Positions 16,059 to 50,855 are shown, counted from the first letter of the stretch. The stretch: DNA of 64,000 nucleotides from an uncultured Actinomycetes bacterium (GCA_963766345.1 CAVXZL010000001.1:1911-65910); one strand, 5' to 3'. Program-made: numbers and translations. The notes: generated by a model from the letters alone, not told the origin.

Positions 16059-17507
16059 ATGACTCTCCGCCACGCAATGGCGGCACTCGCCGGTGCGGCG
16101 ATCGCTCTGGTCGGCGCCGCGACCCACGACGCGCACGCGAGTGGCGGCCTGACGCCCGCTCAACGCGCCGACCTTCGTTCGATCGCGGCCAGGACGTGGA
16201 CGTTCTACGACGTCGACGTCGATCCGAACACGAGCCTGCCTCGCGACTACGTTTCCGACGTAGCGGGTCCGCCGTCCGGCAACTACACCTCGCCGACCGA
16301 CATCGCGATGTACCTGTGGAGCATCGTCGCGGCACGCGACCTGCATCTGATCGCGGACATGGAGGCGAGGCAGCGGCTCGACGCCACGCTCACGGCGATC
16401 GAGCACCTGCGCAAGTGGAACGGGTTCCTGCTCAGCTGGTACGACACGACGAACGGCGCCGTGCTCACCGGCCCGGGGGGCAGCGACCTCGGGCCCGACG
16501 ACTCGCTCGACGGCCAGTTGATCTCCACCGTCGACAGCGGCTGGTACGCGTCGGCGCTCGTCGTCGTTCGGCGGGCGTTTCCGCAGTTCCGCGATCGCGC
16601 GACGAGTCTGCTCGACGCGATGAACTTCGGGATCTTCTACGACGGCCGCGACCAGTCGACCGACATCACCGCAGGGCAGATGTACGGCGGCTGGATCGTC
16701 GGCAGCGGCCCGGCCGGCTTCCACTACGGGCTTCTCAACGCCGAGACGCGCATCGCCGCCTACATCGGGATCGGAACGCACCAGATGCCCGGCGACGTCT
16801 GGTGGCGGACGTGGCGCACGCTTCCGGCGAGCTTCGACTGGCAGACGCAGCTGCCGCAGGGACCGACCGTGACGATTCACGACCCGCAGTCGGGCAAGGC
16901 GTTCGACGTCGTCGAGGGTCACTACTCCTACGGCGGCATCGACTACGTCCCCAGCTGGGGCGGGAGCGAGTTCGAAGGGCTCATGCCGAGCCTCGTCGTC
17001 CCGGAGACGAAGTGGGGGCAAGCGAGCTTCGGCGCGAACGACCGCAACTACGCGCTGGCGTCGACTGCCTACGTGCAGAACGCGCTCCACTACCCGATCT
17101 GGGGACTGTCCCCGGCGAGCACGCCCGACGACAGCGGCGGCTACGACGCATACGGCGCGCACCAGCTCGGCTCGAATCTCGGCTGCTGTCCGTACAGCGA
17201 GGACGCGGTGACGCCGCATGCGTCGTTCCTCGCCCTCACCGTCACAGCCGAGGCGGCATACGCGAACATCGCGGCGCTCCGCAGCGGCTACGACGTGTAC
17301 GGCCCGCACGGGTTCTACGACTCCGTCGATCCGATCACGCATTCCGTCGCGCATCGCTACCTCGTGCTCGACCAGTCGATGATCATGGCCGCGCTCGACG
17401 AGGTCCTGGAGCAGGGGGGCCTGTTGCGCTACTACGCAGCCGATCCCGTCGGCAAGGTCGCGCGACCGTATCTGGCCGGGGAGACCTTCAGCATCGGGCG
17501 GGGGTGA
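16059..17507 (+). CDS. Secreted DUF3131/glucoamylase-like (six-hairpin glycosidase-like) protein
   Basis: Signal peptide ending AHA. Conserved segments (TSPTDIAMYLWS, STVDSGWYA, GLLNAETRIAAYIGIG, SWGGSEFEGLMP, GLSPAS...GYDAYG) resemble the DUF3131 / beta-glucan hydrolase family. Confidence 0.7.
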   Translation: MTLRHAMAALAGAAIALVGAATHDAHASGGLTPAQRADLRSIAARTWTFYDVDVDPNTSLPRDYVSDVAGPPSGNYTSPTDIAMYLWSIVAARDLHLIADMEARQRLDATLTAIEHLRKWNGFLLSWYDTTNGAVLTGPGGSDLGPDDSLDGQLISTVDSGWYASALVVVRRAFPQFRDRATSLLDAMNFGIFYDGRDQSTDITAGQMYGGWIVGSGPAGFHYGLLNAETRIAAYIGIGTHQMPGDVWWRTWRTLPASFDWQTQLPQGPTVTIHDPQSGKAFDVVEGHYSYGGIDYVPSWGGSEFEGLMPSLVVPETKWGQASFGANDRNYALASTAYVQNALHYPIWGLSPASTPDDSGGYDAYGAHQLGSNLGCCPYSEDAVTPHASFLALTVTAEAAYANIAALRSGYDVYGPHGFYDSVDPITHSVAHRYLVLDQSMIMAALDEVLEQGGLLRYYAADPVGKVARPYLAGETFSIGRG

Positions 17508-17526: not shown

Positions 17527-18114
17527 TCAGGCCGGGTTGCGCGCTCGCGTCTCGAGCAGCAGGCCGCGGAGGAAGAGGCCGATCTCGCCGAGCGGGAGCA
17601 CGACGTCCGCGTCGGTCGCGGCGATCGCCGCCGAGGGCATCTCGTGCCGCTCGGCCGACTCGGGGTCCTGGACGATCGCGACGCCGCCCAGCTCCTTGAT
17701 CCGCCGGAGGCCGTCGGCGCCGTCGTCGTTGGCCCCGGTGAGCACGATGCCGATGCATCGCTCGCGATACGCCTCGGCTGCGGTGCGGAACAGGACGTCG
17801 ATCGACGGGCGCGCAAAGCGCACGCGCTCCTCCGTCGAGAGGCCGATCGTGCCGTCGGACTCGATCAGCGTGTGGTAGTCCGACGGCGCGAGGTACACGG
17901 TGCCCGGCCGCAGCTCGTCCTTGTCCTCGACCTCACGCACGGGCAGCGTCGTATAGCGCTGAAGCAGCCCGGGGAGACGGGCCCCGCCTTCGGTGCCGCG
18001 GTGCAGCGCGACGACGACCGCTGCCGGGCAATCCTTGCCGAGCCCGTCCAGCAACACCTCGACCGCACGCATACCGCCCCACGAGCCGCCGATCACCACG
18101 ACGTCGTAATTCAC
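17527..18114 (-). CDS. cheB: CheB-type protein-glutamate methylesterase, catalytic domain only (no receiver domain)
   Basis: Motifs VVVIGGSWGG, RPSIDVLFRTAA and IVLTGANDDGADGLRRIKELGG. The ATGA overlaps the cheR stop. Confidence 0.85.
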   Translation of the reverse strand: MNYDVVVIGGSWGGMRAVEVLLDGLGKDCPAAVVVALHRGTEGGARLPGLLQRYTTLPVREVEDKDELRPGTVYLAPSDYHTLIESDGTIGLSTEERVRFARPSIDVLFRTAAEAYRERCIGIVLTGANDDGADGLRRIKELGGVAIVQDPESAERHEMPSAAIAATDADVVLPLGEIGLFLRGLLLETRARNPA

Positions 18115-18992
18115 GCCTTCACCTTGCGGTAGAGCCGCTCGATCGCGTCGAGCTCCTCGTACTTGGCGGCGCTGTCGCTCATCCGCAGCGACTCCTTGTG
18201 TCCGAGCGCGAGGATCCCGAGCCGCATGAGGCTCGCGTCGAAGAGCTCGAAGACGCGCTCCTGCAGGCTGCGTTCGAAGTAGATCATCACGTTGCGGCAG
18301 ACGACCATGTGGAACTCGTTGAACGACCGGTCCGAAGCGAGGTTGTGCTGTGCGAACACGACGTTGCGCAGCAGCGAGCGGTCGAACGCGGCGCCGTCGT
18401 ACGCCGACGTGTAGTAGTCGGCGAACGCGCCTTTGCCTCCGGCCGCGATGTAGTTGCGCGTGTAGTCCTGCATCTTCGCGAGCGGGAAAACGCCGAGCCG
18501 CGCGCGCTCGAGCACGCCCTCGTTGATGTCGGTCGCATAGATCCGCGCGCGGTCGTACACCCGCTCCTCGTCGAGCAGGATCGCGAGCGAATACACCTCC
18601 TCGCCGGTCGAGCAGCCGGCGACCCAGATGCGCGTGAACGGATACGTCTTGAGCAGCGGCACGACTTTCTCGCGCAGCGCGACGTAGAACGTCGGGTCGC
18701 GGAACATCGCCGTGACGTTGATCGAGAGGTCGAGCAACAACCGCTCCATGACCTCCGGATCGCGAAGCAGCCGTTCCTGCAGAGACGAGATCGTCGGCAG
18801 CCCCTCGAGCTGCAGGCGCCGGTGCACACGCCGTCGCAGCGAGGCGGGCGCGTATTCGCGGAAGTCGAAGCCGTAGCGCCTGAAGACGGCTTCGAGCAGG
18901 CAGTCGAGCTCGATTTTCTCGAGGTCGAGCGCGTCGCCGCCGCTGGCCGAGGCGGCCGTCAGGCCTGCACTGCGCTGCGGTCGTACAGCCAT
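18111..18992 (-). CDS. cheR: CheR-type protein-glutamate O-methyltransferase
   Basis: Motifs [40 protein letters not shown] and [10 protein letters not shown]. It overlaps the 3' end of the kinase gene by 34 nt. Confidence 0.9.
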
Positions 18993-21900
18993 ACGCGGAG
19001 CAACGAGACGAGCTTGTCGGTGTCGACGGGCTTGGTGATGTAGTCCGAGGCGCCCGCGGCGATCGACTTCTCGCGGTCGCCCTTCATGGCCTTCGCGGTC
19101 AACGAGATGATCGGCAGCGCCTCGAACTGCGGCATCGCCCGGATCCGGCGGATCGTCTCGTAGCCGTCGAGCTCCGGCATCATGATGTCCATCAGGACGA
19201 CGTCGACGTCCGCGTCCTCGCCGAGCAGCTTGAGCGCATCGAGCCCGTTCTCGGCGTAGCGGACGTGCATGCGGCGAGCCTCGAGAACGTTGCTCAGCGC
19301 AAACACGTTGCGCACGTCGTCGTCGACGATCAGCACCTTCTTGCCTTCGAAGACGGCGTCTGCGCTGTGCAGCTGCTGCAACAGCTTCCGCTTCTCCGCC
19401 GGAAGTCGCGACTCGACGCGATGCAGGAAGAGGGTCGTCTCGTCCAGCAGCCGCTCGGGTGAGTTCACGTCCTTGACGACGATCGTCTCTGCGTAGCGGC
19501 GCAGCGCGGTTTCCTCCTTGCGCGTGAGCTGTTTCGCCGTGTAGATGATCACCGGCACCTTCGAGAACCGGTCGTCGGACTTGACGCGCTCCAGCAGCTG
19601 AAAGCCCTGCATATCGGGCAGCTTGAGGTCGAGCACCATGCAGTCGTACGGCCCCCGCTCGAGCTCTGCGAGCGCTTCCTCGCTCGAGCCGACCGCGGTG
19701 ACGTTGATGTCCTCGCCGTCTCCGAGGAGCTCGGTCAGGGCCTGGCGCTGGGCGCTCTCGTCGTCGACGACGAGGAGGTTCCTCACCCTCCGGTCGAGGA
19801 AGCCGGAGATCTGGGAGAACGCCTCGTCGAGCAGCGACTTCTCGACGGGCTTCTCGAGGAAGGCAACCGCTCCGGCGCGCAGGGCGTCCTGCTTGCCGTT
19901 CTCGGCGCCGGTGACGACGTGCACCGGGATGTGACGCGTGTCGGGATGGCGCTTCAGGTGATCGAGCACCGCCCAGCCGTCCATGCCGGGAAGCGCCATG
20001 TCGAGGACGATCGCGTCGGGCTTGGACTCGTGCGCGAGGGCGAGCCCTGCATCGCCGCGCAGCGCGACGATTCCCTTGAAGCCACGCTCGCGCGCAACCT
20101 CGAGCACCGTTCTCGCGAAGGTCTCGTCGTCCTCGACGATGAGCACGACGCGGTCGCCGACGTCGATCGAGCCGCGATCGTCGTCGACGCCGCTCGAGAG
20201 GATCAGCGCGGGGTCGATAACGGGACCGGGCACGGCGTCGCCACCGATCGCGGAGCGCTCACGCGTCAGCGGTGCATCGCTGGCCGCGCCGCGGGACGCG
20301 CTGTAGCGCACGGGCAGGTAGAGCGTGAACGTCGATCCCTCGCCGGGCGACGACGTGACGTGGATCTCGCCGCCGAGGAGGCGCGCGATCTCGCGGCTGA
20401 TCGACAGGCCGAGGCCCGTCCCGCCGTAGCGCCTGCTCGTCGTCCCGTCGGCCTGCTGGAACGCCTCGAAGATGAGCTTCAGCTTGTCCGAGGGGATGCC
20501 GACGCCGGTGTCGGTGACGGCGAAGGAGAGCACGGTGTCGGCGTCGAGGAGCGTCCGCTCCCGCAGCTTCGCGCCTTCGCCGGCGCGGGAGACGCGAAGC
20601 GAGACCGTGCCGCTCTCCGTGAACTTGCACGCGTTCGAGATCAGGTTCTTGAGCACCTGCTGCAGTCGCTGCTCGTCGGTCGCGATCTTCGGCGGCACGT
20701 CGGCCGCGATGTCGACGTCGAAGCCGAGCCCCTTCTCCTCCGCGACCGGGCGGAACGTGCGGTTGACGTAGTCGCGGACCTCGTCGAGGCCGAGGTCGGT
20801 GACGTGGACGTCCATCTTGCCGGCTTCGACCTTGGAGAGATCGAGGATGTCGTTGATCAGGTTCAGCAGGTCGCTGCCCGCGGTGTAGATCGTCTTCGCG
20901 AACTCGATCTGCTTCGGAGTCAGGTTCTGCTCCGGGTTCTCCGAGAACAGCCGCGCGAGGATCAGCATCGAGTTGAGGGGCGTGCGCAGCTCGTGCGACA
21001 TGTTCGCGAGGAACTCGCTCTTGTACTTCGACGAGAGCGCGAGCTGCTCCGCCTTGTCCTCGATCGCCGAGCGAGCGTCCTCGATCTCGCGGTTCTTGAT
21101 CTCGATGCGCGCGTTCTGCTCCTCGAGCAGCTGCGCCTTCTCCTCGAGCTCCTCGTTCGTCTGCTGCAGCTCCTCCTGCTGCTGCTGGAGCAGCTCCTCG
21201 GAGGTCTTCAGCGACGCGGCCTGCATCTCGAGCTCGGTGTTCGACCGCTTGAGCTCCTCCTGCTGCGACTGCAGCTCCTCCGAGCGCTCCTGCAGATCCT
21301 CGGTCAGCTTCTGCGACTGCGTGAGCAGCTCCTCGGTGCGCATGTTCTGCTGGATGACGTTGATGACGATCCCGAGCGACTCCATCAGCGCCTCGAGGAA
21401 CGCCTGGTGCGTCTCGCTGAACGGATGGAACGACGCGAGCTCGACGACCGCCATCGTCTGCCCCTCGAACAGCGCCGGCAGCACGAAGACGTTGTGCGGC
21501 GATGCCTCGCCGAGCCCGGACGCGATGCGGATGTAGTCGTCCGGCGCCTCGGTGAGCAGGATTGGCGCCTTCTCGAGCGCCGCCTGGCCGACGAGCCCCT
21601 CGCCGAGCCCGAAGCGGTTCGCGACCGTCTTGCGCTGCTTGTACGCGTAGCTCGAGATCAGGCGCAGCTCGAGCTCCTCGCCCTCGCCGTGCGCGAGGAA
21701 GAACGCGCCGTGGTGCGCGCCGACGAGCGGCGTCAGCTCCGACATGATCATGCGGCTCACGGTCTCGAGGTCGCGCTGGCCCTGCATCATTCCGGTGAAC
21801 CGCGCGAGGTTCGAGTTGAGCCAGTCCTGCTCGGCGTTCCGTCGCGTCGTCTCCGCGAGGTTGCGGATCATCTCGTTGATGTTGTCCTTGAGCTCGCCGA

Positions 21901-24364
21901 CCTCGCCCTTCGCCTCGACGGCAACCGTCCGCGTGAGGTCGCCCTGCGTCACCGCGGTTGAGACGTCGGCGATCGCGCGCACCTGAGTCGTCAGCGACGC
22001 GGCCATCGTGTTCACGTTCTCCGTGAGGTCGCGCCACACGCCCGAGACGCCCCGCACCTGAGCCTGACCGCCGAGCTTCCCCTCGGTGCCGACCTCCTTC
22101 GCGACGCGCGTGACCTCCGCTGCGAACGAGGAGAGCTGGTCGACCATCGTGTTGATCGTGTTCTTGAGCTTGAGCACCTCGCCGCGCGCGTCCACGGTGA
22201 TCTTCTGCGAGAGGTCGCCCTGTGCGACTGCGGTCGTCACCTCGGCGATGTTGCGCACCTGCCCCGTGAGGTTGTCGGCGAGCGTGTTGACGGAGTCGGT
22301 GAGGTCCTTCCAGGTGCCGCTGACGCCCTTGACGCGTGCCTGGCCGCCGAGCTTGCCCTCGGTGCCGACCTCGCGCGCCACGCGCGTGACCTCGTCGGCG
22401 AACGAGGAGAGCTGGTCGACCATCGTGTTGATCGTGTTCTTGAGCTGGAGGATCTCGCCCTTGACGTCGACGGTGATCTTCCGGCCGAGGTCGCCCTGGG
22501 CGACCGCCGTCGTGACCTCGGCGATGTTCCGCACCTGGCCGGTCAGGTTCGACGCCATGAAGTTGACGTTGTCGGTCAGGTCCTTCCAGACGCCCGACAC
22601 GCCCTCGACGCGGGCCTGGCCGCCGAGGATGCCCTCGGTGCCGACCTCGCGCGCCACCCGCGTGACCTCCGCTGCGAACGAGCGGAGCTGGTCGACCATC
22701 GTGTTGATGGTCTCCTTGAGCTCGAGGATCTCGCCGCGCGCGGTCACGGTGATCTTGCGAGAGAGGTCGCCCTGCGCGACCGCGGTCGTGACGTCCGCGA
22801 TGTTCCGCACCTGGCCGGTCAGGTTGTCGGCGAGCGTGTTGACGTTGTCCGTGAGGTCCTTCCACGTACCGGAGACACCCTCGACCTTCGCCTGGCCGCC
22901 GAGCTTGCCCTCGGTGCCGACCTCCTTGGCGACGCGCGTGACCTCGTCGGCGAACGAGGAGAGCTGGTCGACCATCGTGTTGATCGTGTTCTTGAGCTCG
23001 AGGACCTCGCCCTTGACGTCGACGGTGATCTTCTTCGAGAGGTCGCCCGTCGCGACGGCGGTCGTGACGTCCGCGATGTTCCGCACCTGCGCGGTCAGGT
23101 TCGCCGCGAGCGTGTTGACGTTGTCGGTGAGATCCTTCCAGACGCCCGAGACGCCCTTCACGTCGGCCTGGCCGCCGAGGATGCCCTCGTTGCCGACCTC
23201 GCGCGCGACGCGCGTCACCTCGCCGGCGAACGCGCGCAGCGTGTCGATCATCGAGTTGATCGTGTCCGCGAGCTGTGCGACCTCGCCCTGCGCCTCGATC
23301 GTGAACTTCCGGTCGAGGTCGCCGTTCGCGACGGCGGTGACGACGCGCGCGATCCCGCGGACCTGCGTCGTCAGGTTCGTCGCCATGAAGTTCACGTTGT
23401 CGGTGAGGTCCTTCCAGGTGCCGCTGACGCCCTTGACGCGTGCCTGGCCGCCGAGCTTGCCCTCCGTGCCGACCTCGCGGGCGACGCGTGTGACCTCGTC
23501 GGCGAACGAGGAGAGCTGGTCGACCATCGTGTTGATCGTGTTCTTCAGCACCAGGATCTCGCCCTTGACGTCGACGCTGATCTTCCGACTCAGATCGCCT
23601 GCGGCGACCGCCTTCGTGACGTCTGCGATGTCGCGCACCTGTGCGGTCAGGTTCGACGCCATGAGGTTGACGTTGTCCGTGAGGTCCTTCCAGACCCCGG
23701 ACGTTCCCTTGACCTTCGCCTGCCCGCCGAGCTTGCCCTCGGTGCCGACCTCGCGCGCCACGCGCGTCACCTCGTCGGCGAAGCTCGAGAGCTGGTCGAC
23801 CATTGCGTTGACCGTCGTGCCGATGCGGCGGAACTCCCCTCGTAGGGGCCTCCCGTCGATCCGCAGGTCCATCCGCTGCGAGAGATCGCCGTCGGCGACC
23901 GCGTCGATCACGCGGGCGATCTCGTTCGTCGGCCTGACGAGATCGTCGATCATGCCGTTGATCGCGTCCGTGGTCTCGCGCCAGGCGCCGCGGTAGCGCG
24001 GCAACGCCACGCGCTCGTTGAGGCGCCCGTCCCGGACGACGCGTGCGACGCGCTGCAACTCGTCTGCGAGGTTCGAGCGCCTGTCCGCGAGGTCGTTGTA
24101 GGCACGCGCGAGCTCTCCGCCGAGGCCGCTCTGCTCTCCGCTCAGCCGAAAGTCGAAGTCACCGGCGCTGGCCGCGCGCAGAGCAGCGAGCAACTCGCGC
24201 AGCGGCGCCTCGTCGACCGCGCCGTTTCCGTTCGTCCCTTCGGTCGCGACTTCGGCGCGAGTTGTCTTCGCTCGTGACGTTCTGCTCGCAGCCACCGTTG
24301 CTCCTTCCGCAGTAGGAGTGCTCCGGGCGGGGTTGTCGGGGGTCACCAACTCGAGCCCTCGCAC
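18959..24364 (-). CDS. Soluble hybrid sensor histidine kinase: poly-HAMP array, GAF, E/Q-rich coiled coil, HisKA, HATPase_c, three receiver domains
   Basis: No TM segment was found. There are 8 tandem 92-aa HAMP-pair units, a GAF domain (aa ~860-1000), H-box [10 protein letters not shown] (His ~1124), N/G boxes, and three REC domains (LIVEDDE...[15 protein letters not shown]...[15 protein letters not shown]...DIMMPELDG). An alternative start, GTG 24295, has the strong SD GGAAGGAG. Confidence 0.9.
21851..24064 (-). repeat. Coding tandem repeat: 8 x 276 bp (92-aa HAMP-pair units; first copy degenerate)
   Basis: The unit FA[DAG]EVTRVA[RK]EVGxEGxLGGQAxVxGxSGxWxDLTxNVNxxAxxLTxQVRxIAxVxxAVxxGDLxxKxxVxxxGExxxLKxTINxMVDQLxS starts at aa 195, 287, 379, 471, 563, 655 and 747. 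Stretches of about 80 nt are near-identical between copies (for example around 22100, 22380, 22930, 23480). Confidence 0.9.
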
Positions 24365-28086: not shown

Positions 28087-29880
28087 CTAGGAGACGAGGC
28101 CTGCCGGGACCGGGCTCACGACGGCCGTCAGCGCGGCGACCGCTTGCGGATCGAACTGCTTCCCGGCCGACTCCTCGAGCTCGGCGAGCGCAGCGTCGAC
28201 GGTCAGTTTCTTGCGATACGCGCAGTCGCTCGTCAGCGCGTCGAACGCCTCCGCCACGGCGACGATCCGCGAGCCGAGAGGGATGTCGTCGCCGTGGAGG
28301 CCGTCCGGATAGCCGGCGCCGTCCCAGTGCTCGTGGTGGTGGAGCACGCAATCGGCGATCGGATCGGCGCCGAGGCTCTCGAGCATCCGGTAGCCCACCT
28401 GCGGATGCCGCTCGAGCGTCAGCCGCTCCGCGTCCGTCAGCGGCTCCGGCTTGCGGAGGATCTCGTCCGGCACGGCGAGCTTGCCCACGTCGTGAAGGCC
28501 GCCGGCGATGCGCACGAGCTCGACGTCGTTCGCATCGAGGTCGAGCCGCGTGGCGATCCGCTCCGCCAGCTCGGCGACGCGCGCGGCATGACCGTCGGCG
28601 TACGCGTCCCGCGCGTCGACAGCTTTCGCGAGGCTCTCCGCCGCCTCGATCCGCGCCGCGCGGTCGCCACCGCGCGTGAGCTTCTTCAGGTCGGCGAGGT
28701 CGACGACCTCCGGCCGGTACGCGTGCACGCGGTTCTTGCCGTGCTCCTTCGCCCAGTAGAGAGCGCTGTCGGCCAGCCGGATCAGCTCGTCGCGGCCGAC
28801 GCCCTGCACCGGGTACGTCGCGACACCTGCGCTCACCGTCACGGGCTCAGTGAACTCGAGCTGCATGCCGCGCAGGCGATCGACGATGGATGCGGCCGTG
28901 TCGAGCGCGGCTGCCTCGGCCTGCTCCGGGAGCAGCACGGCGAACTCGTCGCCGCCGAGTCGGAAGGCCTCGCCGCCCTGCCGCAGCCGCCCGGCGACCT
29001 CCGACAGAACGCGGTCGCCCACCGGATGGCCGTACACGTCGTTGATGTGCTTGAAGTCGTCGAGGTCGACGAGGCAGAGGCTCAGGAACCCGCGCGCTTC
29101 TTCCGCCGCGACGAGCTCGCGCTGGAGCCGCTCGTGGAAGTGGCGGTGGTTGCCGAGACCCGTCAACGGGTCGGTGAGCGCGAGCCGCATCGCGCGCAGC
29201 GCGCGATACGTCGAACGTTGGTACAGCGAGATCGCGAGCAGCGGCCCGACGAGGGCGGCCGCGAGGATCGCCGAGCGCTGCCAGAGAACGACGAGGATGA
29301 GCGACGCCGACGCCATCAGCGCGAAGGGGATGACCGTGCCGACGGTGTTCGTCCGCACGAGCGAGGTGAACGAGCGCTTCGAGTGGACGGCGACGACGAG
29401 CGTGATCAGGAGCAGGTTGATCCAGTAGTCCACGAACGCCGCGATGCCGACCGCGAGCACCAGCCCGCCGACGGTCTGCGTGTCGAGCCACTGGATCGAG
29501 AGGCCCGCGAGCGCCGCCGCGCCGCCGAAGACGGACGCGTTGTAGACGACGCGGATCGCGGGGCGGTGCTGAAGAAGCTGCGTGAACGTCCCGATCGCCG
29601 CGAGCAGCGCGCCCGCTTCCCAGCCGTAGATGACCGTCGTCGAGACGACGAAGACGTAGAGCAGCGAGACGCCGCCGGCGTCGGCTCCCTCGACCGGAAC
29701 CGGGAAGCGCTCCGCGAACATCGACGCCGCGAGCAGCGCGGCGAGCCCGAGGAGCGTGCCCGTCGAATGATCCTGGCGCGCGAACGAGATCGCCGCCCAG
29801 GCAAGCGTGAGGGCGCCCGCCGTGCAGACGGGCACCAGCACGGCGAGCAGCCGTGGCGGGAGGCCCGCCCGCGCGCTCAC
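28087..29880 (-). CDS. Membrane-bound GGDEF + HD-GYP domain protein (c-di-GMP synthesis/hydrolysis)
   Basis: About 6-7 N-terminal TM helices. GGDEF domain (RLGGDEFAVLL, I-site-like RVHA) and HD-GYP domain (GGLHDVGKLAVP, HHEHWDGAGYPDGL). The GTG at 29880 is preferred. The track ORF extends to 29958. Confidence 0.85.
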   Translation of the reverse strand: MSARAGLPPRLLAVLVPVCTAGALTLAWAAISFARQDHSTGTLLGLAALLAASMFAERFPVPVEGADAGGVSLLYVFVVSTTVIYGWEAGALLAAIGTFTQLLQHRPAIRVVYNASVFGGAAALAGLSIQWLDTQTVGGLVLAVGIAAFVDYWINLLLITLVVAVHSKRSFTSLVRTNTVGTVIPFALMASASLILVVLWQRSAILAAALVGPLLAISLYQRSTYRALRAMRLALTDPLTGLGNHRHFHERLQRELVAAEEARGFLSLCLVDLDDFKHINDVYGHPVGDRVLSEVAGRLRQGGEAFRLGGDEFAVLLPEQAEAAALDTAASIVDRLRGMQLEFTEPVTVSAGVATYPVQGVGRDELIRLADSALYWAKEHGKNRVHAYRPEVVDLADLKKLTRGGDRAARIEAAESLAKAVDARDAYADGHAARVAELAERIATRLDLDANDVELVRIAGGLHDVGKLAVPDEILRKPEPLTDAERLTLERHPQVGYRMLESLGADPIADCVLHHHEHWDGAGYPDGLHGDDIPLGSRIVAVAEAFDALTSDCAYRKKLTVDAALAELEESAGKQFDPQAVAALTAVVSPVPAGLVS

Positions 29881-29890
29881 GTCGCGTTTT

Positions 29891-30007
29891 CTACCAGCCG
29901 AACTGCCGGAGCGTGTCGCCGGCGTCACCCGCGTAACCGCCGAACGCTGCGACCGCAAGCGCCGCGAGGGTGAGGACTGCGTAGAAGCGTGGTTTCCACT
30001 GAAGCAT
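29891..30007 (-). CDS. Possible 38-aa single-TM small protein
   Basis: ATG preceded by GGAAAGG. The sequence is MLQWKPRFYAVLTLAALAVAAFGGYAGDAGDTLRQFGW. It is below the ORF-track size cutoff and sits between the NlpC/P60 and GGDEF genes. Confidence 0.3.
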   Translation of the reverse strand: MLQWKPRFYAVLTLAALAVAAFGGYAGDAGDTLRQFGW

Positions 30008-30105: not shown

Positions 30106-31119
30106 CTACGAGAGCCTTGCCTCGTTCAAGGGACGTCGCGCCCAGGCGAAGCTCGACGCGTACCAGCCGTCGAGCCGGGCCAGCGCGACGCCGTATCCCG
30201 ACGAGTGGATGAACCAGCCGTTGCCGAGGTAGATGGCCGTGTGATCGACCTGCGCCGGCTTCGACTTCGGGCCGCGCGAGCCGAAGAAGATGACGTCGGC
30301 CGGCTCGAGGCCGGCGATGCCGATGCGGGCGGACTTCGCGACCTCGCCGCTCATCGCCATCGTCGTGCGTCCGTGCAGCACGCCGCTCAGCTGCGGTGCG
30401 CCCGAGTAGGACTGCAGCTTGAAGACGCGCCACACGAACCCCGAGCAGTCGAAGCCTCCGGGAGTCGCGAGGCCGAGCGGCGTCTGCGCGTTCTCGCTCG
30501 TGCCTCCCCAGACGTACGGGTAGCCGATGAACGACACGGCGACGCGCAGGATGCGGCGCTGCCACGTCGTCAGATCGGGGAGCTCGAAGCTCTGCGCAGC
30601 GTCGTCGACGCTCTGGAGCTCCCAGTCGCCGAAGCCGAGGATCTGCGCGGCCGAGAACGCGGCCTCGGCGCGGGTCGCCGTGTCGTTCGGGAGCAGTTCG
30701 AGCGCGTCCTGCCCGGTTGGATGGTTCGTCCGGAGCGCGAGCAGCCGGGCGACGGCCTCGGTGCCGAACCGGCTCGGAGGCGCAAGGCCGGCGGCTTTCG
30801 CGGCGGCGGCGAAGGCTGCCGAGTCGGCACGAAGACCGAGTGCCGTCACGAGCGCCGAGTCGAGCTTCGCCATCGTGACGGGCGCAGTCGGCTCTGCGGG
30901 CGAAGCGGCCGGGCGCTCCGTGAGGCCGGCGACGAGGTCGGCGAGCGCGGCCTGCGTGAGCGGCGCGTCCGGCTGGAAGGACGCTGCCTTGCCGCCCATG
31001 AGGCCTCGCGACGTGACGGCGCGGATCTCACGTTGTGCCCACGACGTCGTGCCGGCCGCCGCGAAAGCGGGGGCCGCGAGGGTCAGACAAAGGACTGTCA
31101 GGAGCGCGTACCGCCGCAT
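30106..31119 (-). CDS. Secreted NlpC/P60-family peptidoglycan endopeptidase with SLH-like N-terminal repeats
   Basis: Signal peptide LCLTLAAPAFA. The catalytic Cys is in FDCSGFVWRVF and the catalytic His in HTAIYLGNGWFIHSS. Confidence 0.85.
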   Translation of the reverse strand: MRRYALLTVLCLTLAAPAFAAAGTTSWAQREIRAVTSRGLMGGKAASFQPDAPLTQAALADLVAGLTERPAASPAEPTAPVTMAKLDSALVTALGLRADSAAFAAAAKAAGLAPPSRFGTEAVARLLALRTNHPTGQDALELLPNDTATRAEAAFSAAQILGFGDWELQSVDDAAQSFELPDLTTWQRRILRVAVSFIGYPYVWGGTSENAQTPLGLATPGGFDCSGFVWRVFKLQSYSGAPQLSGVLHGRTTMAMSGEVAKSARIGIAGLEPADVIFFGSRGPKSKPAQVDHTAIYLGNGWFIHSSGYGVALARLDGWYASSFAWARRPLNEARLS

Positions 31120-42341: not shown

Positions 42342-42474
42342 TCACGCGGCCGCACGAGGGGCAGATGCGACGCCGATGCTTCGGCTCGAGTGCGTTCTTA
42401 CCCAGTCCCGCCTTCACCATCAGGTAGCCCACGCCGGCTGCGGAGAGGACGAGGGAGAGGGAGTGCGTCATCAT
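42313..42474 (-). CDS. Possible 53-aa TM + zinc-ribbon-like small protein
   Basis: The sequence is MMTHSLSLVLSAAGVGYLMVKAGLG...ICPSCGRVISGRRCDAH (C-x2-C-x9-C-x2-H). It overlaps the non-conserved tail of the xerD-like ORF in another frame and the HEAT gene 3' end by 29 nt. Confidence 0.35.
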   Translation of the reverse strand: MMTHSLSLVLSAAGVGYLMVKAGLGKNALEPKHRRRICPSCGRVISGRRCDAH

Positions 42475-43363
42475 CGGCTTGGGTCCGGCGCCGCCGCGCG
42501 TGCGGGTGCGCTTGGAAGTACAACTCTCGCCGTCTCCGATCGGATACGTGTGTGTACAGCTCCGTCGTCGAGAGATCGGCATGTCCGAGCATCTCCTGAA
42601 CCGAGCGGAGGTCGGCGCCGCCCTCGAGGAGGTGCGTCGCAAACGAGTGTCGGAGCAGATGCGGGTGCACGCGCGTGGGGTCGAGGCCGGCCTTCTCCGC
42701 TCGGCGCTTGAGGATGAGGAACGCACCCGCGCGCGTGAGCGCGCCGCCCTGTGCGTTGAGGAAGAGCTCCGGGCGATGGCGACGGTCGAGATGCGGCCGG
42801 CCGCGTGAGAGGTAGCGCCGAAGCGCTTCGACGGCCCGGCGTCCGATCGGCACGATCCGCTCCTTGTCGCCCTTGCCGACGCACCGGACGAGGCGGTCGT
42901 CGAGCGAGATCGACGCTTTCTCGAGTGAGACGGCCTCCGACACGCGGAGGCCGGCGCCGTAGAGGAGCTCGACGAGGGCGCGGTCGCGGAGGTCGCGCGG
43001 CTGCGTGCCGGCCGCGGCCTCGATCAGGCGCTCGGCCTCGCCGGGCGAGAGCGTGCGCGGCAACTTCGGACGGCGTCGCGGCAGGTCGAGCTCCGCCGCT
43101 GGATTGTCGTCTCGCTCCCCGAGCAATTGCTGGTGCCGGTAGAAGCTGCGCAGCGCCGCCGTGCGTCGCGCGAGCGTCGACGGCGCAAGGCCACCGGCGC
43201 GAAGCTCGGCGAGGTACCGCTCGAGGTCGTCCGTCGTCGCTGTCGCCGGAGACGCCTCGAGAAACGCGGACACGTGCTCGAGGTCGCGCCGATACGCCTC
43301 GACGGTGCGCGCCGCGCGACGCGTCGCGAGGAGGGCGAGGAAGCCTTCGACGGGCGGATCCAC
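42398..43363 (-). CDS. xerD: Tyrosine recombinase, XerD-like
   Basis: Motifs ELLYGAGLRVSEAVSL, HLLRHSFATHLLEGGADLRSVQEMLGHADLSTTELYTHV and AHPHA, followed by a ~36-aa non-homologous extension. Confidence 0.85.
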   Translation of the reverse strand: MDPPVEGFLALLATRRAARTVEAYRRDLEHVSAFLEASPATATTDDLERYLAELRAGGLAPSTLARRTAALRSFYRHQQLLGERDDNPAAELDLPRRRPKLPRTLSPGEAERLIEAAAGTQPRDLRDRALVELLYGAGLRVSEAVSLEKASISLDDRLVRCVGKGDKERIVPIGRRAVEALRRYLSRGRPHLDRRHRPELFLNAQGGALTRAGAFLILKRRAEKAGLDPTRVHPHLLRHSFATHLLEGGADLRSVQEMLGHADLSTTELYTHVSDRRRRELYFQAHPHARRRRTQADDDALPLPRPLRSRRGLPDGEGGTG

Positions 43364-43716: not shown

Positions 43717-44550
43717 TCAGGACCGCGGATGCGCGCGGTCGTAGACTCGGCGCAGGCGCTTGCCGTCCACGTGGCTGTAGATCTGCGTCGTCGAGAGCGA
43801 GGAATGTCCGAGGAGCTCCTGGATCGTGCGCAGGTCGGCTCCGCCCTCGAGCAGGTGCGTTGCGAAGGCGTGGCGCAGCCGGTGCGGGTGCGGCGAGATC
43901 CGGCGCAGGGTGCTCGTGTCGAGCCGACGTCCGCGGACGGAGACGAAGAGCGCAGGCTCGGCACGCGCGACGAGTTCCGGGCGCGCGTGCTCGAGGTAGC
44001 GCGCGAGCCAGAACCCGGCCTCCTCGCCGAGCGGCACGACGCGTTCCTTGCCGCCCTTGCCGCGCACGCGGACGAGCTCCTGCTCGAAGTCCACGTCGTC
44101 GACGTCGAGCCCGACGGCCTCCGCGCTTCGCAACCCGGCCGAGTAGACGAGCTCCACGAGCGCACGGTTTCGCAAAGCGAGCGGGCCGTCGCCTTCGAGA
44201 GCCTCGAGCAGCTGCTCGATCTCGGCGGATCGCGGCGGGTCCGGCAGCCGCCTCGCACGGCGCGGACCGAGCGCGACGTCGGGCACGCGCGCCGGGCCGA
44301 GCGTGAAGCGCAGGAACGACCGAACGGCTGCGAGGCGCCGCGCCACGCTCGAGGGTGCGAGCCGCGAGCGCGCTCGTCCGAGCTCTGAAGCGTAATCGGC
44401 GAGCTCGCGCACTCCGATGCCGTCGAGACTCAGCTTGCGCGCGTCGAGCCAGCGCGCGAAGTGCTCGAGGTCGACGCGGTACGTGCGCCGCGTGGCGTCC
44501 GCGAACGAGGGGCTCGCCAGGAAGCGGTCGATCTCTCGCTCGAAGGCCAC
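43717..44550 (-). CDS. xerC: Tyrosine recombinase, XerC-like
   Basis: Motifs ELVYSAGLRSAEAVGL and HRLRHAFATHLLEGGADLRTIQELLGHSSLSTTQIYSHV, ending in AHPRS. Confidence 0.85.
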   Translation of the reverse strand: MAFEREIDRFLASPSFADATRRTYRVDLEHFARWLDARKLSLDGIGVRELADYASELGRARSRLAPSSVARRLAAVRSFLRFTLGPARVPDVALGPRRARRLPDPPRSAEIEQLLEALEGDGPLALRNRALVELVYSAGLRSAEAVGLDVDDVDFEQELVRVRGKGGKERVVPLGEEAGFWLARYLEHARPELVARAEPALFVSVRGRRLDTSTLRRISPHPHRLRHAFATHLLEGGADLRTIQELLGHSSLSTTQIYSHVDGKRLRRVYDRAHPRS

Positions 44551-47263: not shown

Positions 47264-48946
47264 GTGGAAGCGAAGCACGACGTGCTGGTCGTCGGCGCGG
47301 GTTGCGCGGGCATGCGGGCAGCGATCGAGGCGTTCGACGCCGGTGCAGACGTGGGTGTCATCTCGAAGCTCCACCCGACGCGCAGCCACTCCGGCGCGGC
47401 CGAGGGCGGCATCAACGCGGCGCTCGGCAACGCGGGGGAGGACGACCCGGAGAAGCACACGTTCGACACCGTCAAGGGCTCGGACTACATCGGCGACCAG
47501 GACGCGATCGAGATCCTGTGCCGTGAGGCGCCGGGCGACATCTACCAGCTCGAGCACTGGGGCGCGTTCTTCTCGCGACGCGACGACGGCAAGCTCGCGC
47601 AGCGCCCGTTCGGCGCGGCCGGCTCGCCGCGCACCGTGTATGCGGCCGACATCACCGGCCACGTCCTGATCCAGGTTCTCTACGAGCAGCTGTGCCGGCG
47701 CAACATCACGGTGTACGAGGAGTTCTTCGCGTGGCGCCTCGTCATCAACGACGACCGCTGCCAGGGCGTCATCTGCTGGGACCTGCTCGACGGCGGCCTG
47801 CGGACGATCGGCGGCAAGACGGTGGTGCTCGCCACCGGCGGCGCCGGGCGCCTCTATCGCGCGACGACGAACGCGTATGCGTGCACCGGCGACGGCATGG
47901 CGATGGCGCTGCGTTCGGGGCTGCCGCTGAAGGACATGGAGTTCATGCAGTTCCACCCGACGACGCTGTTCCCGTCGGGAATCCTCATCACCGAGGGCTG
48001 CCGCGGCGAGGGCGGGTACCTGATCAACAAGGACGGCGAGCGCTTCATGAAGCACTACGCGCCGAACGCGATGGAGCTCGCGTCGCGCGACGTCGTCTCG
48101 CGCTCGGAGACGACCGAGATCGAGGAAGGGCGCGGCGTCAACGGCTCCATCTACCTCGACCTGCGGCATCTCGGGGCCGAGCGGATCATCGACCGGCTTC
48201 CCGGCTCCCGCGAGCTCGCGATGACCTACGCGGGAGTCGACCCGATCTACGACCCCATCCCCGTCAGGCCCGGAGCGCACTACCACATGGGCGGCGTCGA
48301 CACCAACAACGACGGCCTCACGGAGCTGACCGGCCTCTACGCGTCCGGAGAGGCGGCGTGCGTCTCCGTGCACGGCGCGAACCGCCTCGGAGGCAACTCG
48401 CTGATGGAGACGATCACGTTCGGCCGGCGCTCCGGACGTGCCGCGGCCGAATGGGCGCTGTCGCATACGACGGTCGAGGTGCCGGAGTCGCAGGAGCGTG
48501 ACGCCGAGCACGACCTCCAGGAGCTGCTCGACCGGCCCGGCGGTGAGCGCCCGTGGAAGATCCGCGACGAGCTCGGCGCGTCGATGCTCGAGAACTTCGG
48601 CGTCTTCCGGCGCGAAGAGAAGATGGTGCGCCAGGTGGAAATCATCGACGAGCTGCGCGAGCGCTATGAAAACGTCTACGTCGAGGACAAGGGCGAGGTC
48701 TTCAACAGCGATCTCACGCAGGCGATCGAGCTCGGGTACATGCTCGACCTCGCCGCGTGCATGCTCCAGGCCGGCATCGCGCGCAAGGAGAGCCGCGGAG
48801 CGCACTCGCGACCGTACGACTATCCCAAGCGCGACGACGCTCGCTTCATGAAGCACTCGATCACGCGCTGGGTCGACGGGCAGCCGGAGCTGTCGTACAA
48901 GGACGTGCGCTTCACGAAGTACGAGCCGACGGAAAGGAAGTACTGA
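47264..48946 (+). CDS. sdhA: Succinate dehydrogenase/fumarate reductase flavoprotein subunit
   Basis: Motifs [15 protein letters not shown], the covalent-FAD site [17 protein letters not shown] and [10 protein letters not shown]. Confidence 0.93.
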
Positions 48947-49674
48947 TGCAGCGGATCGCCCTCGTGTTCATGGTTCTGCCGCTCGCTCTCGCGGCGTGCA
49001 GCGGCACCGAGTCGCGCGTCGCGCGCCAGCTGACACCGACGGCGTCGGTGCGGCAGGCCGCGAACAAGACGACGGCGGCGACGAGCGCGCACCTGACGTT
49101 CAACGCCTCCGGCGCGTTCGGCGGGCAGAACGGCTCTCTGACCGGCAGCGCCGATTTCGACAATGCCAACCATCGCGGCTCGTTCCATCTCGACGTGCCG
49201 GAGTACGGCGCATTCGACCTGATCCTCGACGGCAATACGGCATACGTGGGAGCTCCCTTCCTGAAGGCGTTCCTGCCCGCGGGGAAGACGTGGCTCAAGC
49301 TCGACGGAAAGACGCGCAGCAGTGCGCTGCCGAAGTCGATTCCGCAGGATCCGAAGGAGGCGCTGGCGCGCTTGAAGAAGCTCGCCGACGTACGCAAGGT
49401 CGGCGAGGAGACGATCGACGGAGTGACCACGACTCACTACCACGGCGTCGGCCGCCTCGACCACGGCGCGTTCGACGTGTGGATCGGCAACGACGACGGG
49501 TACGTCCGTCGCGTGCGCGCGGGAGCGAACGGCAAGCAGGGGCACGGCGAGCTCGTCGTCACGCTCTCGGACTTCGGCGAGTCCGTTTCCGTGACTCCGC
49601 CGCCGGCGTCCGAGACCGCGGACGCGGCGGCCCTCATGAGCTCCTTCAAGACCAACCTCTTCAAGCGCGGATGA
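48946..49674 (+). CDS. Lipoprotein (LolA/LprG-like fold suspected) inserted between sdhA and sdhB
   Basis: Lipobox LALAAC after [12 protein letters not shown]. The body is beta-rich and includes GEETIDGVTTTHYHG. Both ends are overlap-coupled to the neighbours (TGATG, ATGA). Confidence 0.7.
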   Translation: MQRIALVFMVLPLALAACSGTESRVARQLTPTASVRQAANKTTAATSAHLTFNASGAFGGQNGSLTGSADFDNANHRGSFHLDVPEYGAFDLILDGNTAYVGAPFLKAFLPAGKTWLKLDGKTRSSALPKSIPQDPKEALARLKKLADVRKVGEETIDGVTTTHYHGVGRLDHGAFDVWIGNDDGYVRRVRAGANGKQGHGELVVTLSDFGESVSVTPPPASETADAAALMSSFKTNLFKRG

Positions 49675-50855
49675 AGGTCGGCCTCAAGATCTGGCGGTAC
49701 GACTCGTCGACGGGCGACCGCGCGCTGAAGGAGTACGAGCTCGACGCGCCGGAGGAGGCGACCCTCCTCGACTGCCTCGATCTCATCAAGGACCAGCAAG
49801 ACGGCACGCTCGCGTACCGCAAGAGCTGCCGGATGATGATCTGCGGCTCGTGCGGCATGCGCATGGACGGCGCCGCGGTGCTCGCGTGCAAGACGCGCAT
49901 GTACGAGATCGCGGAGAGCGGCCACGTGCCGGTCGTCTCGGCGATGGGCAACCTGCCGATCGTCAAGGACCTCGTCGTCGACATGACGCCGTTCTGGTCG
50001 AAGTTCCGCGCGGTCGGGCCGTGGCTGAATCCCGGCTACGACCAGCCGGCCGACGGCAAGGAGTACCGGATCTCGCAGGAGCGCATGAACGTCATCCACA
50101 AGGAGTCGCTCTGCATCAACTGCGGCTGCTGCGTGTCCGAGTGCAACGCCATGGAGGCGGACCCGGAGTTCCTCGGCCCGCAGGCGCTCGCGAAGGGGAT
50201 GCGCTTCGTCGGCGATCCGCGCGAGGCGAAGGCCGTCGAGCGGCTCGAGGACTACAACTCGGAGCACGGGATCTGGGACTGCACGCGGTGCTACTTCTGC
50301 AACGAGCGCTGCCCGAAGGGCGTCGACCCGCGCGACGCGATCGCGAAGCTCGGCGCCGAGTCGATCAAGCACGGCATCGACCGCGACATGGGCGCGAAGC
50401 ACGCGAAGTGGTTCGTCACGTCCGCGAAGACGACGGGCTGGCTGCGCGAGACCGAGCTCGTGCCGAAGACGCAGGGGATCAAGGCGGCGATCCAGCAGAC
50501 GGGCTTCGCGCTCGGCCTGCTGAAGCACGGCAAGGTGCCGCTGCCCGTGCCGCCGCACGTCGCAAAGGACGTGCCGCAGGCGCGCGCGCTCCACGACATC
50601 GTGAACTCGCAGGACCGGCTGGGCGCGCTCGGGATCGTGCAGGGCGAGCGCGCGCTGTCGCGCCTCGAGCACGGCACCCACGCCGGGGGCAACGCGGAGC
50701 GCGGGCCCTACGGCGAGGGCTCGTTCCCGCGGCCGTTCCTCCCCGGCGAGGACGGCGCTCCGCCGGCCGGCGGGGACGAGGGCATGGGCAGCCGCACGCA
50801 GGCCGACGTGACGCCCGGCGCGGAACCGACGAAGAAGCCCGGCGGCGGCGCCTGA
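49671..50855 (+). CDS. sdhB: Succinate dehydrogenase iron-sulfur subunit with a long C-terminal extension
   Basis: 2Fe-2S Cys cluster (CRMMICGSCGM...C), CINCGCCVSEC and CTRCYFCNERCP, followed by ~150 extra residues ending in a Gly/Pro-rich tail. Confidence 0.88.
   Translation: MKVGLKIWRYDSSTGDRALKEYELDAPEEATLLDCLDLIKDQQDGTLAYRKSCRMMICGSCGMRMDGAAVLACKTRMYEIAESGHVPVVSAMGNLPIVKDLVVDMTPFWSKFRAVGPWLNPGYDQPADGKEYRISQERMNVIHKESLCINCGCCVSECNAMEADPEFLGPQALAKGMRFVGDPREAKAVERLEDYNSEHGIWDCTRCYFCNERCPKGVDPRDAIAKLGAESIKHGIDRDMGAKHAKWFVTSAKTTGWLRETELVPKTQGIKAAIQQTGFALGLLKHGKVPLPVPPHVAKDVPQARALHDIVNSQDRLGALGIVQGERALSRLEHGTHAGGNAERGPYGEGSFPRPFLPGEDGAPPAGGDEGMGSRTQADVTPGAEPTKKPGGGA

Follow-up and report, generated by a model that had tools for sequence, protein, structure and literature searches.

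A Glu-Glu coiled coil as the candidate target of CheR and CheB in a poly-HAMP hybrid histidine kinase cassette of an uncultured Actinomycetes bacterium

CheR and CheB are textbook enzymes of chemotaxis, specific for chemoreceptors. A very large CheR subfamily is encoded together with hybrid histidine kinases and without receptors, and its only studied cases are the cfc and bms clusters of Pseudomonas. In P. putida, cfcABCDE encodes CfcA (PP_3761), a CHASE3/GAF hybrid kinase required for the diguanylate cyclase CfcR, while cfcB and cfcC form one of three CheR/CheB pairs, for which an involvement in chemotaxis was excluded (PMC4951495). The bmsA cluster of P. alkylphenolica and genes 3082-3079 of P. 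fluorescens comprise a kinase, CheR, CheB and a hybrid kinase (PMC8175716). In Salmonella, CheR methylates PhoP at Glu/Asp pairs in the receiver (REC) domain (PMC8546571). No report of CheR or CheB modifying a sensor kinase of the CfcA type was found in the literature reached, although earlier statements may exist elsewhere. Here, we describe a related cassette in a 64,000-nt stretch of DNA from an uncultured Actinomycetes bacterium (GCA_963766345.1, CAVXZL010000001.1:1911-65910; hereafter the window, meaning the whole stretch), in which the genes for a giant hybrid histidine kinase, CheR and CheB follow one another on the minus strand between positions 17,527 and 24,364.

Pseudomonas loci with the same core as the window (L069, L075, L078, L080) were recovered by the same CheR search, and from their gene order, which agrees with the cluster descriptions, we infer that they are cfc/bms orthologues. 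They share with the window a hybrid kinase consisting of GAF, coil, HisKA, HATPase and three REC domains, followed by CheR and then by a receiver-less CheB. The CheR proteins belong to the same subfamily (52-54% identity), and the His-box region is nearly identical over an 18-residue segment. The differences lie in the sensor and the output: the Pseudomonas kinases are described as CHASE3/GAF proteins of about 1150-1190 aa, presumably membrane-bound, whereas that of the window is a soluble protein in which Pfam finds about 16 HAMP domains but no CHASE3. The window and its closest relative, L001, are without the fourth (REC-kinase) and fifth (REC) genes, and while the output in P. putida is CfcR and cyclic di-GMP (c-di-GMP), the GGDEF protein of the window has no receiver. 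The window cassette is a poly-HAMP three-gene variant of the Cfc/Bms-type cassette, a type already described at the gene-cluster level. The initial annotation of this DNA had called such CheR/CheB-kinase associations functionally uncharacterised, which holds for the role of CheR and CheB but not for the kinases, as CfcA and BmsA have been characterised (PMC4951495, PMC8175716). What is new here is a Glu-Glu coiled coil as the candidate target of the two enzymes, its specificity for CheR-linked kinases, its counterpart in fusion proteins and its co-variation with CheR.

The reading that we favour, and to which we give an even chance of being right, is that CheR and CheB reversibly methylate exposed Glu pairs in the coil that leads from the GAF domain to the phospho-acceptor His, thereby tuning the kinase. 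The kinase had been proposed as the methylation target from the window alone, and this proposal now has partial support: a coil specific to CheR-linked kinases, a similar coil in cis in fusion proteins and the loss of Glu-Glu pairs in CheR-less relatives speak for it, and the lack of a chemoreceptor methylation consensus speaks against it.

When 64 distinct CheR-linked kinases from several phyla were aligned, anchored on the phospho-acceptor His, the linker between GAF domain and His box aligned without gaps over about 14 heptads. Leu (or Ile, Val, Met) occupies position d at each seventh residue between -93 and -16, numbered from the His, position a is Asn, Gln, Ser or Ala, and positions b and c are Glu-Glu, with Glu 78-91% conserved at -60/-59, -53/-52, -87 and -94. 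The core of the His box, YK..F....M.SHELR.PLN, is invariant in this alignment and its remainder nearly so; in the window kinase the phospho-acceptor is His1124, which lies within a 21-residue segment of this box. The window coil contains 25 Glu and 16 Gln in 98 residues, and 18 of the approximately 30 [EQ][EQ] pairs of the whole kinase fall within it, including the in-register Glu-Glu pairs at b and c, E1029/30, E1036/37, E1064/65 and E1071/72. A density of at least four [EQ]EL motifs per 80 aa, reached by 52 of the 9244 six-frame open reading frames (ORFs) of the 85 loci described below, is found in CheR-associated kinases only, and never in the REC-kinases or other kinases of these loci.

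Sister kinases without CheR provide a comparison. A tblastn search of plasmids with the GAF-coil-His-box segment of the window kinase returned 235 records, while the CheR subfamily is found in only 86, and 18 of the 19 kinase hits analysed have the poly-HAMP-GAF-kinase-REC architecture without CheR or CheB. These CheR-less kinases have the architecture of the window kinase and are up to 63% identical to it across the GAF domain, coil and His box, but their coil is about four heptads shorter and Glu-Glu is mostly replaced by EK, EA, RE or EQ. In the coils QQEKL...ANEAL of Azospirillum and QQREL...TNEQL of Rhizobium, for example, the changes fall at the Glu pairs. The mean number of in-register Glu-Glu pairs is 1.2 in CheR-less kinases (n = 17 distinct) versus 3.8 in CheR-linked ones (n = 65), with a naive Mann-Whitney p = 6e-9, and the contrast persists inside the poly-HAMP class alone (p = 4e-5, also naive). 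Coil length follows the enzymes as well: CheR-less kinases and the CheR-only kinases of Deinococcus and Anaerolineae have coils of 80-87 residues, against 108-115 residues wherever CheR and CheB are both present, the extra 28-35 residues being rich in Glu. In a neighbour-joining tree of the kinase core without the coil, computed without support values, the CheR-less kinases form about four separate clades nested among the CheR-linked ones, so that the association rests on several contrasts and not on one.

The second line of evidence comes from CheB/CheR fusion kinases (KEGG K13924 type), which likewise unite CheB, CheR and a sensor kinase. A NEELQS motif recurs in CheB/CheR fusion proteins, and a query with this motif picked up short PAS_10-containing ORFs, of which many bear the name "CheB/CheR fusion protein". 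These names were not used as evidence, as the example in L085 is a broken-up coil-PAS_10-PAS-HisKA gene that has neither CheB nor CheR in its vicinity. A tblastn search of plasmids with coil plus PAS_10 gave 271 records; of 32 annotated hits sampled evenly across them, 29 fall within genes named CheR family methyltransferase or CheB. One of these proteins, WP_085861068.1 of Rhizobium sp. TAL182 (L087; 1323 aa), consists according to Pfam of CheB_methylest (28-171), CheR_N, CheR (293-479), the coil, PAS_10 (741-847), PAS and HWE_HK. Its coil, at about residues 690-745, runs in heptads in which a is Asn, b and c are Glu-Glu and d is Leu, as exemplified by a 12-residue run, and stands before the sensor/kinase part. 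The window kinase shows the same NEEL-type pattern (Asn or Gln at a), while having neither PAS_10 nor HWE_HK by Pfam. The fusion differs in carrying the enzymes in cis, where the window has separate genes, and in that its coil leads into PAS_10, PAS and an HWE kinase instead of a HisKA His box, with no GAF, HAMP or receiver domains. The CheR part is 32% identical to the window CheR and has no NYxxAGG signature, which means that two CheR lineages are tied to a similar coil, one in cis and one in trans.

Both enzymes of the window appear to be intact. Pfam scores of 50.8 bits for CheR_N and 135.5 bits for CheR (cut-off 27 each) place the methyltransferase in the CheR family (PF03705 + PF01739), and it aligns over its full length with the solved CheR structures 5ftw, 1af7 and 1bc5. 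Against the NCBIfam equivalog of the E. coli type, NF007902, it reaches 85.7 bits, far under the 435-bit cut-off. The subfamily carries the signature NYxxAGGxxxFxxYY in the beta-subdomain; the alpha2 helix is basic over a 10-residue segment, and the domain that binds S-adenosylmethionine (SAM) is kept. The cheB product is the methylesterase catalytic domain only: CheB_methylest (PF01339, 185.7 bits) covers residues 6-179 of 195, and the protein aligns solely with the C-terminal half of full-length CheB models, in line with the earlier description of a CheB lacking its REC domain. The triad Ser11/His38/Asp131 lines up with the motifs of the T. maritima CheB structure 3sft and is kept in 59-60 of 60 cassette CheBs. 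With triad, SAM domain and basic N-domain helix conserved, CheR and CheB are predicted to be enzymatically competent.

A mechanism can be proposed in which the cassette is a Cfc/Bms-type two-component system with a poly-HAMP sensor, and CheR and CheB probably act on the kinase itself. The substrate would be the approximately 100-residue parallel coiled coil joining the GAF domain to the phospho-acceptor helix, with Glu-Glu exposed to solvent at positions b and c. Using SAM to methyl-esterify these residues, CheR would cancel their charge and so might alter the stability or packing of the helix, and the change in charge could shift the kinase between its on and off states, as in the methylation helices of chemoreceptors, with CheB reversing the effect. 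A CheB without a receiver may be constitutively active, in which case any feedback would have to come from conformation-dependent availability of the substrate. A phosphorelay kinase would in this way acquire a slow covalent layer for adaptation or for its set-point. The output in relatives is a REC-kinase whose gene comes after cheB, and genes for c-di-GMP enzymes are often close by. That the coil is the substrate, that its methylation shifts kinase activity and that the system adapts are each steps that we infer. Compared to canonical chemosensory systems, the enzyme folds and catalytic residues are the same and the proposed logic is similar, with Glu pairs seven residues apart on an exposed helix face that would be reversibly neutralised to control a histidine kinase. 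By contrast, the window has no methyl-accepting chemotaxis protein (MCP), CheW or CheA, its kinase is a HisKA-type hybrid and its CheB is receiver-less; the unbroken heptad register of the candidate helix points to a parallel two-stranded coil, whereas that of MCPs is an antiparallel four-helix bundle.

In a wider form, which we hold with somewhat less than even confidence, the Glu-Glu heptad coil would be a portable methyl-accepting module that gives two-component kinases a chemotaxis-like covalent adaptation or memory without chemoreceptors, in trans in thousands of operons and in cis in CheB-CheR-PAS-kinase fusions, and that was repeatedly gained and lost together with the enzymes. If CheR and CheB do methylate the coil, reversible glutamate methylation becomes a general tuning layer of two-component signalling, with a bearing on how bacteria set the thresholds for biofilm and c-di-GMP decisions. 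For experiments, the comparison singles out a short fragment, specific Glu pairs and natural negative controls in the form of the CheR-less sister kinases.

Several observations weigh against methylation of the coil. The MCP consensus [ASTG][ASTG]xx[EQ][EQ]xx[ASTG][ASTG] has no regular-expression match in the window kinase, nor has EExxA[ST], and there is no C-terminal NWETF-like pentapeptide that could serve as a tether. Glu/Gln alternation at the candidate b,c sites is almost absent and with it the deamidase signature seen in MCPs; the Gln content of the coil does not differ between loci with and without CheB. CheB, if it acts here, would work as an esterase and not as a deamidase. About a quarter of the loci, notably in Bacillota and Deinococcus, have no CheB at all. 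Acidic, Gln-rich coiled coils are common in signalling proteins. The co-variation itself is imperfect, with short QQEELxQTNEEL coils (two EE heptads) in CheR-linked Deinococcus as well as in CheR-less Caballeronia and Sphingobium, and its statistics ignore phylogeny, just as the tree behind the clade count is without support values. In P. putida, mutation of the other cfc genes leaves the CfcA-dependent crinkly phenotype in place, according to an unpublished statement of the authors (PMC4951495), which implies that any effect of CheR and CheB is modulatory or kinetic.

Among the alternatives, the one that survives best takes the Glu-rich coil as only a structural or signal-transmitting linker of this kinase clade, or as a docking site, with CheR and CheB modifying another protein or a small molecule. 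It fits the fact that the coil belongs to the highly conserved kinase core, the persistence of two EE heptads in some CheR-less kinases and the lack of an MCP-like consensus, but it accounts neither for the fusion of a similar coil with CheB-CheR in a kinase family unrelated to this one nor for the loss of Glu-Glu pairs and four heptads in about four independent CheR-less clades, and we regard it as unlikely. Quite improbable, in our estimate, is methylation of acidic residues in a receiver domain, either one of the three in the kinase or that of the downstream REC-kinase in relatives, which would alter phosphotransfer. This would follow the precedent of PhoP in Salmonella (PMC8546571), and the three receivers are constant in CheR/CheB-linked kinases, stand-alone REC genes lie beside CheR or CheB in Bacteroidota and Alcanivorax, and a CheR-REC-GGDEF-EAL fusion (P0234) exists. 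However, CheR-less homologues also carry two or three receivers, so that it is the Glu-Glu coil and not the receiver that tracks CheR, and the CheB-CheR-PAS-HWE kinase fusion has the coil without any receiver. Methylation of the coil remains our preferred reading.

The distribution of the cassette bears on the last alternative. The window CheR, for which an exact-sequence look-up found no match on record, has many metagenomic relatives with more than 72% identity, the nearest named one being from a Gaiellaceae metagenome-assembled genome (72%). Its subfamily comprises 2430 clusters (50% identity) at E<=1e-30. Metagenome relatives with 75-82% CheR identity keep the kinase-CheR-CheB order, to which a fourth gene for a REC-PAS-GAF-PAS-kinase is added in some. 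The REC-kinase is present in L002 and L035 and absent from L001. A scan of one genome per species with a 20-sequence CheR alignment, a 65-sequence version being too diverse, gave 80 loci from at least ten phyla: Gemmatimonadota, Acidobacteriota, Cyanobacteria, Bacillota, Myxococcota, Actinomycetota, Deinococcota, Bacteroidota, Spirochaetota, Chloroflexota and several classes of Pseudomonadota. The arrangement is not due to chance, since it recurs both at 75-82% CheR identity and in about 80 genomes of at least ten phyla. Domains were mapped in 85 loci by six-frame phmmer, using the window's own domains and Tsr and CheW sequences as probes. The kinase core (GAF, coil, histidine kinase, usually three REC) lies directly upstream of CheR in 68 of the 85; the other 17 are mostly contigs cut within the kinase or order variants such as that of Leptospira (CheR-CheB-kinase-REC-kinase). 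A receiver-less CheB comes right after CheR in 60 of the 85 loci, and a REC-kinase is next in 48. The N-terminal sensor varies, being a poly-HAMP array in Actinomycetota, Gemmatimonadota, Acidobacteriota, some Cyanobacteria, Myxococcota, Deinococcus and Chloroflexota and of other types elsewhere.

Across these 85 loci the MCP probe matched in only two, on the opposite strand and more than 6 kb off, and the CheW probe, which had no positive control, matched in none, nor did Hpt or CheA-type domains turn up in these loci; the Tsr probe works, as MCPs were detected in L032, L077 and L091. The initial annotation had mentioned that such associations are seen in genomes and had named a lack of conserved linkage as a reason to abandon its proposal. 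The survey bears out the former, and linkage is conserved over at least ten phyla in clusters without MCP or CheW. The window locus is one ordinary member of a very large family and not a singular case. That CheR and CheB work on ordinary chemoreceptors whose genes lie elsewhere in the genome, their linkage to the kinase being mere co-regulation, is very improbable: the view is limited to 64 kb of the genome, the Pfam domains are those of standard CheR and CheB and some host genera, among them Pseudomonas, Azospirillum and Nostoc, are rich in MCPs, but the cassette is also present in Chryseobacterium and Deinococcus, which to our knowledge are non-flagellate and largely without chemotaxis genes, the tight and often overlapping linkage to the kinase spans at least ten phyla in clusters without MCP, CheA or CheW, and the CheR forms a separate subfamily with its own signature, far from the equivalog. 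The exclusion of a chemotaxis role for the P. putida pair (PMC4951495) points the same way.

Some lineages depart from the common arrangement. In Alcanivorax (L060, L081) a stand-alone receiver gene lies between CheR and CheB and looks like a split CheB, and in Bacteroidota (L051, L055, L058, L063, L064, L065, L073, L084) one lies between kinase and CheR; these genes hint at phospho-control in trans in some lineages. Protein P0234 (895 aa) joins a CheR of the subfamily to REC, GGDEF and EAL (domains assigned by eye), that is, a methyltransferase to a c-di-GMP response regulator. P0135, P0157, P0160, P0162, P0173, P0212 and P0264 are CheR-CheB or CheB-CheR fusions without the coil and were set aside as having no link to it. 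P0234 and these fusions, all among the CheR representatives, show a link to two-component and c-di-GMP signalling, not to the coil. The coil-PAS_10-PAS-HisKA gene of L085/L086 (6001-8277) is split into three overlapping ORFs beside IS66 transposase genes and is probably a decayed remnant of a CheB/CheR-fusion kinase.

The CheR-less sister kinases are followed by a REC-kinase in Azospirillum, Rhizobium, Ensifer, Mesorhizobium, Sphingomonads, Methylocystis, Bosea and Caballeronia and by a SpoIIE phosphatase in Streptomyces and Kitasatospora. Their loci (L088-L103, L105, L106) are on plasmids and chromids; the actinomycete ones come with SpoIIE and STAS partner-switching genes, and on rhizobial replicons the kinases often adjoin glycogen or trehalose genes.

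The features of the cassette are listed in Table 1. The window has a G+C content of 70%, and all three minus-strand ORFs have the high third-position G+C (GC3) typical of coding sequence. Pfam finds eight HAMP and eight HAMP_2 stretches, GAF, HisKA, HATPase_c and three Response_reg in the kinase, and no Hpt domain. Self-identity of the array peaks at shifts of 92 and 184 aa, giving eight double-HAMP units, and its DNA is a 276-bp tandem repeat (TRF: period 276, 7 copies, 78% matches, 21875-23815). Related kinases have between about 7 and 14 units, a spread suggesting that the repeat expands and contracts by recombination. Tandem HAMP arrays are also found in fungal group III hybrid kinases (Nik1/Os-1) and Aer2-type poly-HAMP proteins. 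The double-HAMP repeat of Nik1 has the same length of 92 residues, and we know of no CheR/CheB association for either group. By inspection, each receiver of the window kinase has the acidic pair, the phospho-acceptor Asp, the Thr and the Lys. No membrane segment is predicted in the kinase (maximum Kyte-Doolittle 19-residue mean 1.47), which makes "soluble" a reasonable description. The orthologue in L001 has 1770 aa, so the start of the window kinase is uncertain by about 30 codons and the true one may lie downstream. The genes are translationally coupled by overlaps of 34 nt between kinase and cheR and 4 nt between cheR and cheB. ORFs, Pfam and hydropathy agree with the initial annotation in that three chained genes include a giant soluble hybrid kinase with three REC domains, and the junction sequence confirms its 34-nt overlap; of the ATGA overlap it gave for cheR/cheB the length is right and the letters are not, as the sequence is GTGA and cheB starts with GTG.

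Table 1. Genes of the kinase-CheR-CheB cassette and segments of the kinase in the 64-kb window.
Feature	Position	Strand	Details
Hybrid histidine kinase gene	18959-24364	(-)	1801 aa from GTG start; ORF and translation, Pfam, GC3 0.94
Poly-HAMP array	21887-24094	(-)	residues ~91-826; eight 92-aa units, each HAMP + HAMP_2
GAF domain	21362-21778	(-)	residues 863-1001; Pfam GAF_2 2.9e-18, GAF 4.1e-11
Glu-Glu heptad coiled coil, candidate methyl-accepting segment	21041-21334	(-)	residues 1011-1108; 21-bp DNA periodicity
HisKA/DHp domain	20819-21022	(-)	residues 1115-1182; Pfam and anchored alignment
HATPase_c catalytic domain	20309-20680	(-)	residues 1229-1352; Pfam 3.9e-30
Three receiver domains	18998-20134	(-)	residues ~1411-1535, 1541-1665, 1677-1789; Pfam Response_reg, 3 stretches, 6.2e-70
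cheR	18111-18992	(-)	293 aa; Pfam CheR_N + CheR
cheB	17527-18114	(-)	195 aa; Pfam CheB_methylest 7.7e-55

Pfam analysis of 43 candidate ORFs found no MCPsignal, CheA, CheW, Hpt or stand-alone CheY in the 64-kb window, and a six-frame phmmer scan with the Tsr and CheW probes, the latter again without positive control, found no MCP and no CheW. Within these 64 kb, the earlier statement that cheA, cheW, cheY and MCP genes are missing is correct. The cassette is flanked by housekeeping genes arranged as is typical of Actinomycetota, among them radA, disA, carD, ispD, then cysS, a pyridoxal phosphate (PLP) enzyme and an extracytoplasmic function (ECF) sigma factor. A glucoamylase-like gene (16059-17507, plus strand) is convergent with cheB, and no REC-kinase gene of the cfcD type follows cheB. 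Upstream of the kinase are a PLP enzyme of Cys/Met metabolism and then a divergent carboxyltransferase, with genes of the tricarboxylic acid cycle farther off. A scan for promoters and terminators in the window was uninformative, its terminator-like matches being artefacts that the repeated HAMP DNA produces on the non-coding strand.

A receiver-less MASE9-GGDEF-HD-GYP protein is encoded at a distance of three genes from the cassette (28087-29958, minus strand), and this gene is retained there in L001 and L002. GGDEF or REC-GGDEF genes also flank the cassette in Bacillota, Deinococcus and Rhodocyclales (L039, L040, L041, L048, L104). This recurrent association of the cassette with c-di-GMP is consistent with CfcA-CfcR in Pseudomonas.

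Other genes of the window are of separate interest. Two adjacent tyrosine recombinase genes (42398-43363 and 43717-44550, both minus strand; Phage_integrase with a SAM-like N domain) lie between citrate synthase and phosphoenolpyruvate carboxykinase and may represent either xerC/xerD-like genes or the border of an integrated element. In an ORF at 30106-31119 (minus strand), an S-layer homology domain is joined to an NlpC/P60 peptidase domain, a combination uncommon in most Actinomycetota and consistent with a deep-branching lineage such as Thermoleophilia. Finally, in the 619-aa ORF at 48996-50855 (plus strand), which overlaps the ORF at 48757-49674, the succinate dehydrogenase iron-sulfur-like domains Fer2_3 and Fer4 start at residue 230, reflecting either a mis-called start or a long N-terminal extension.

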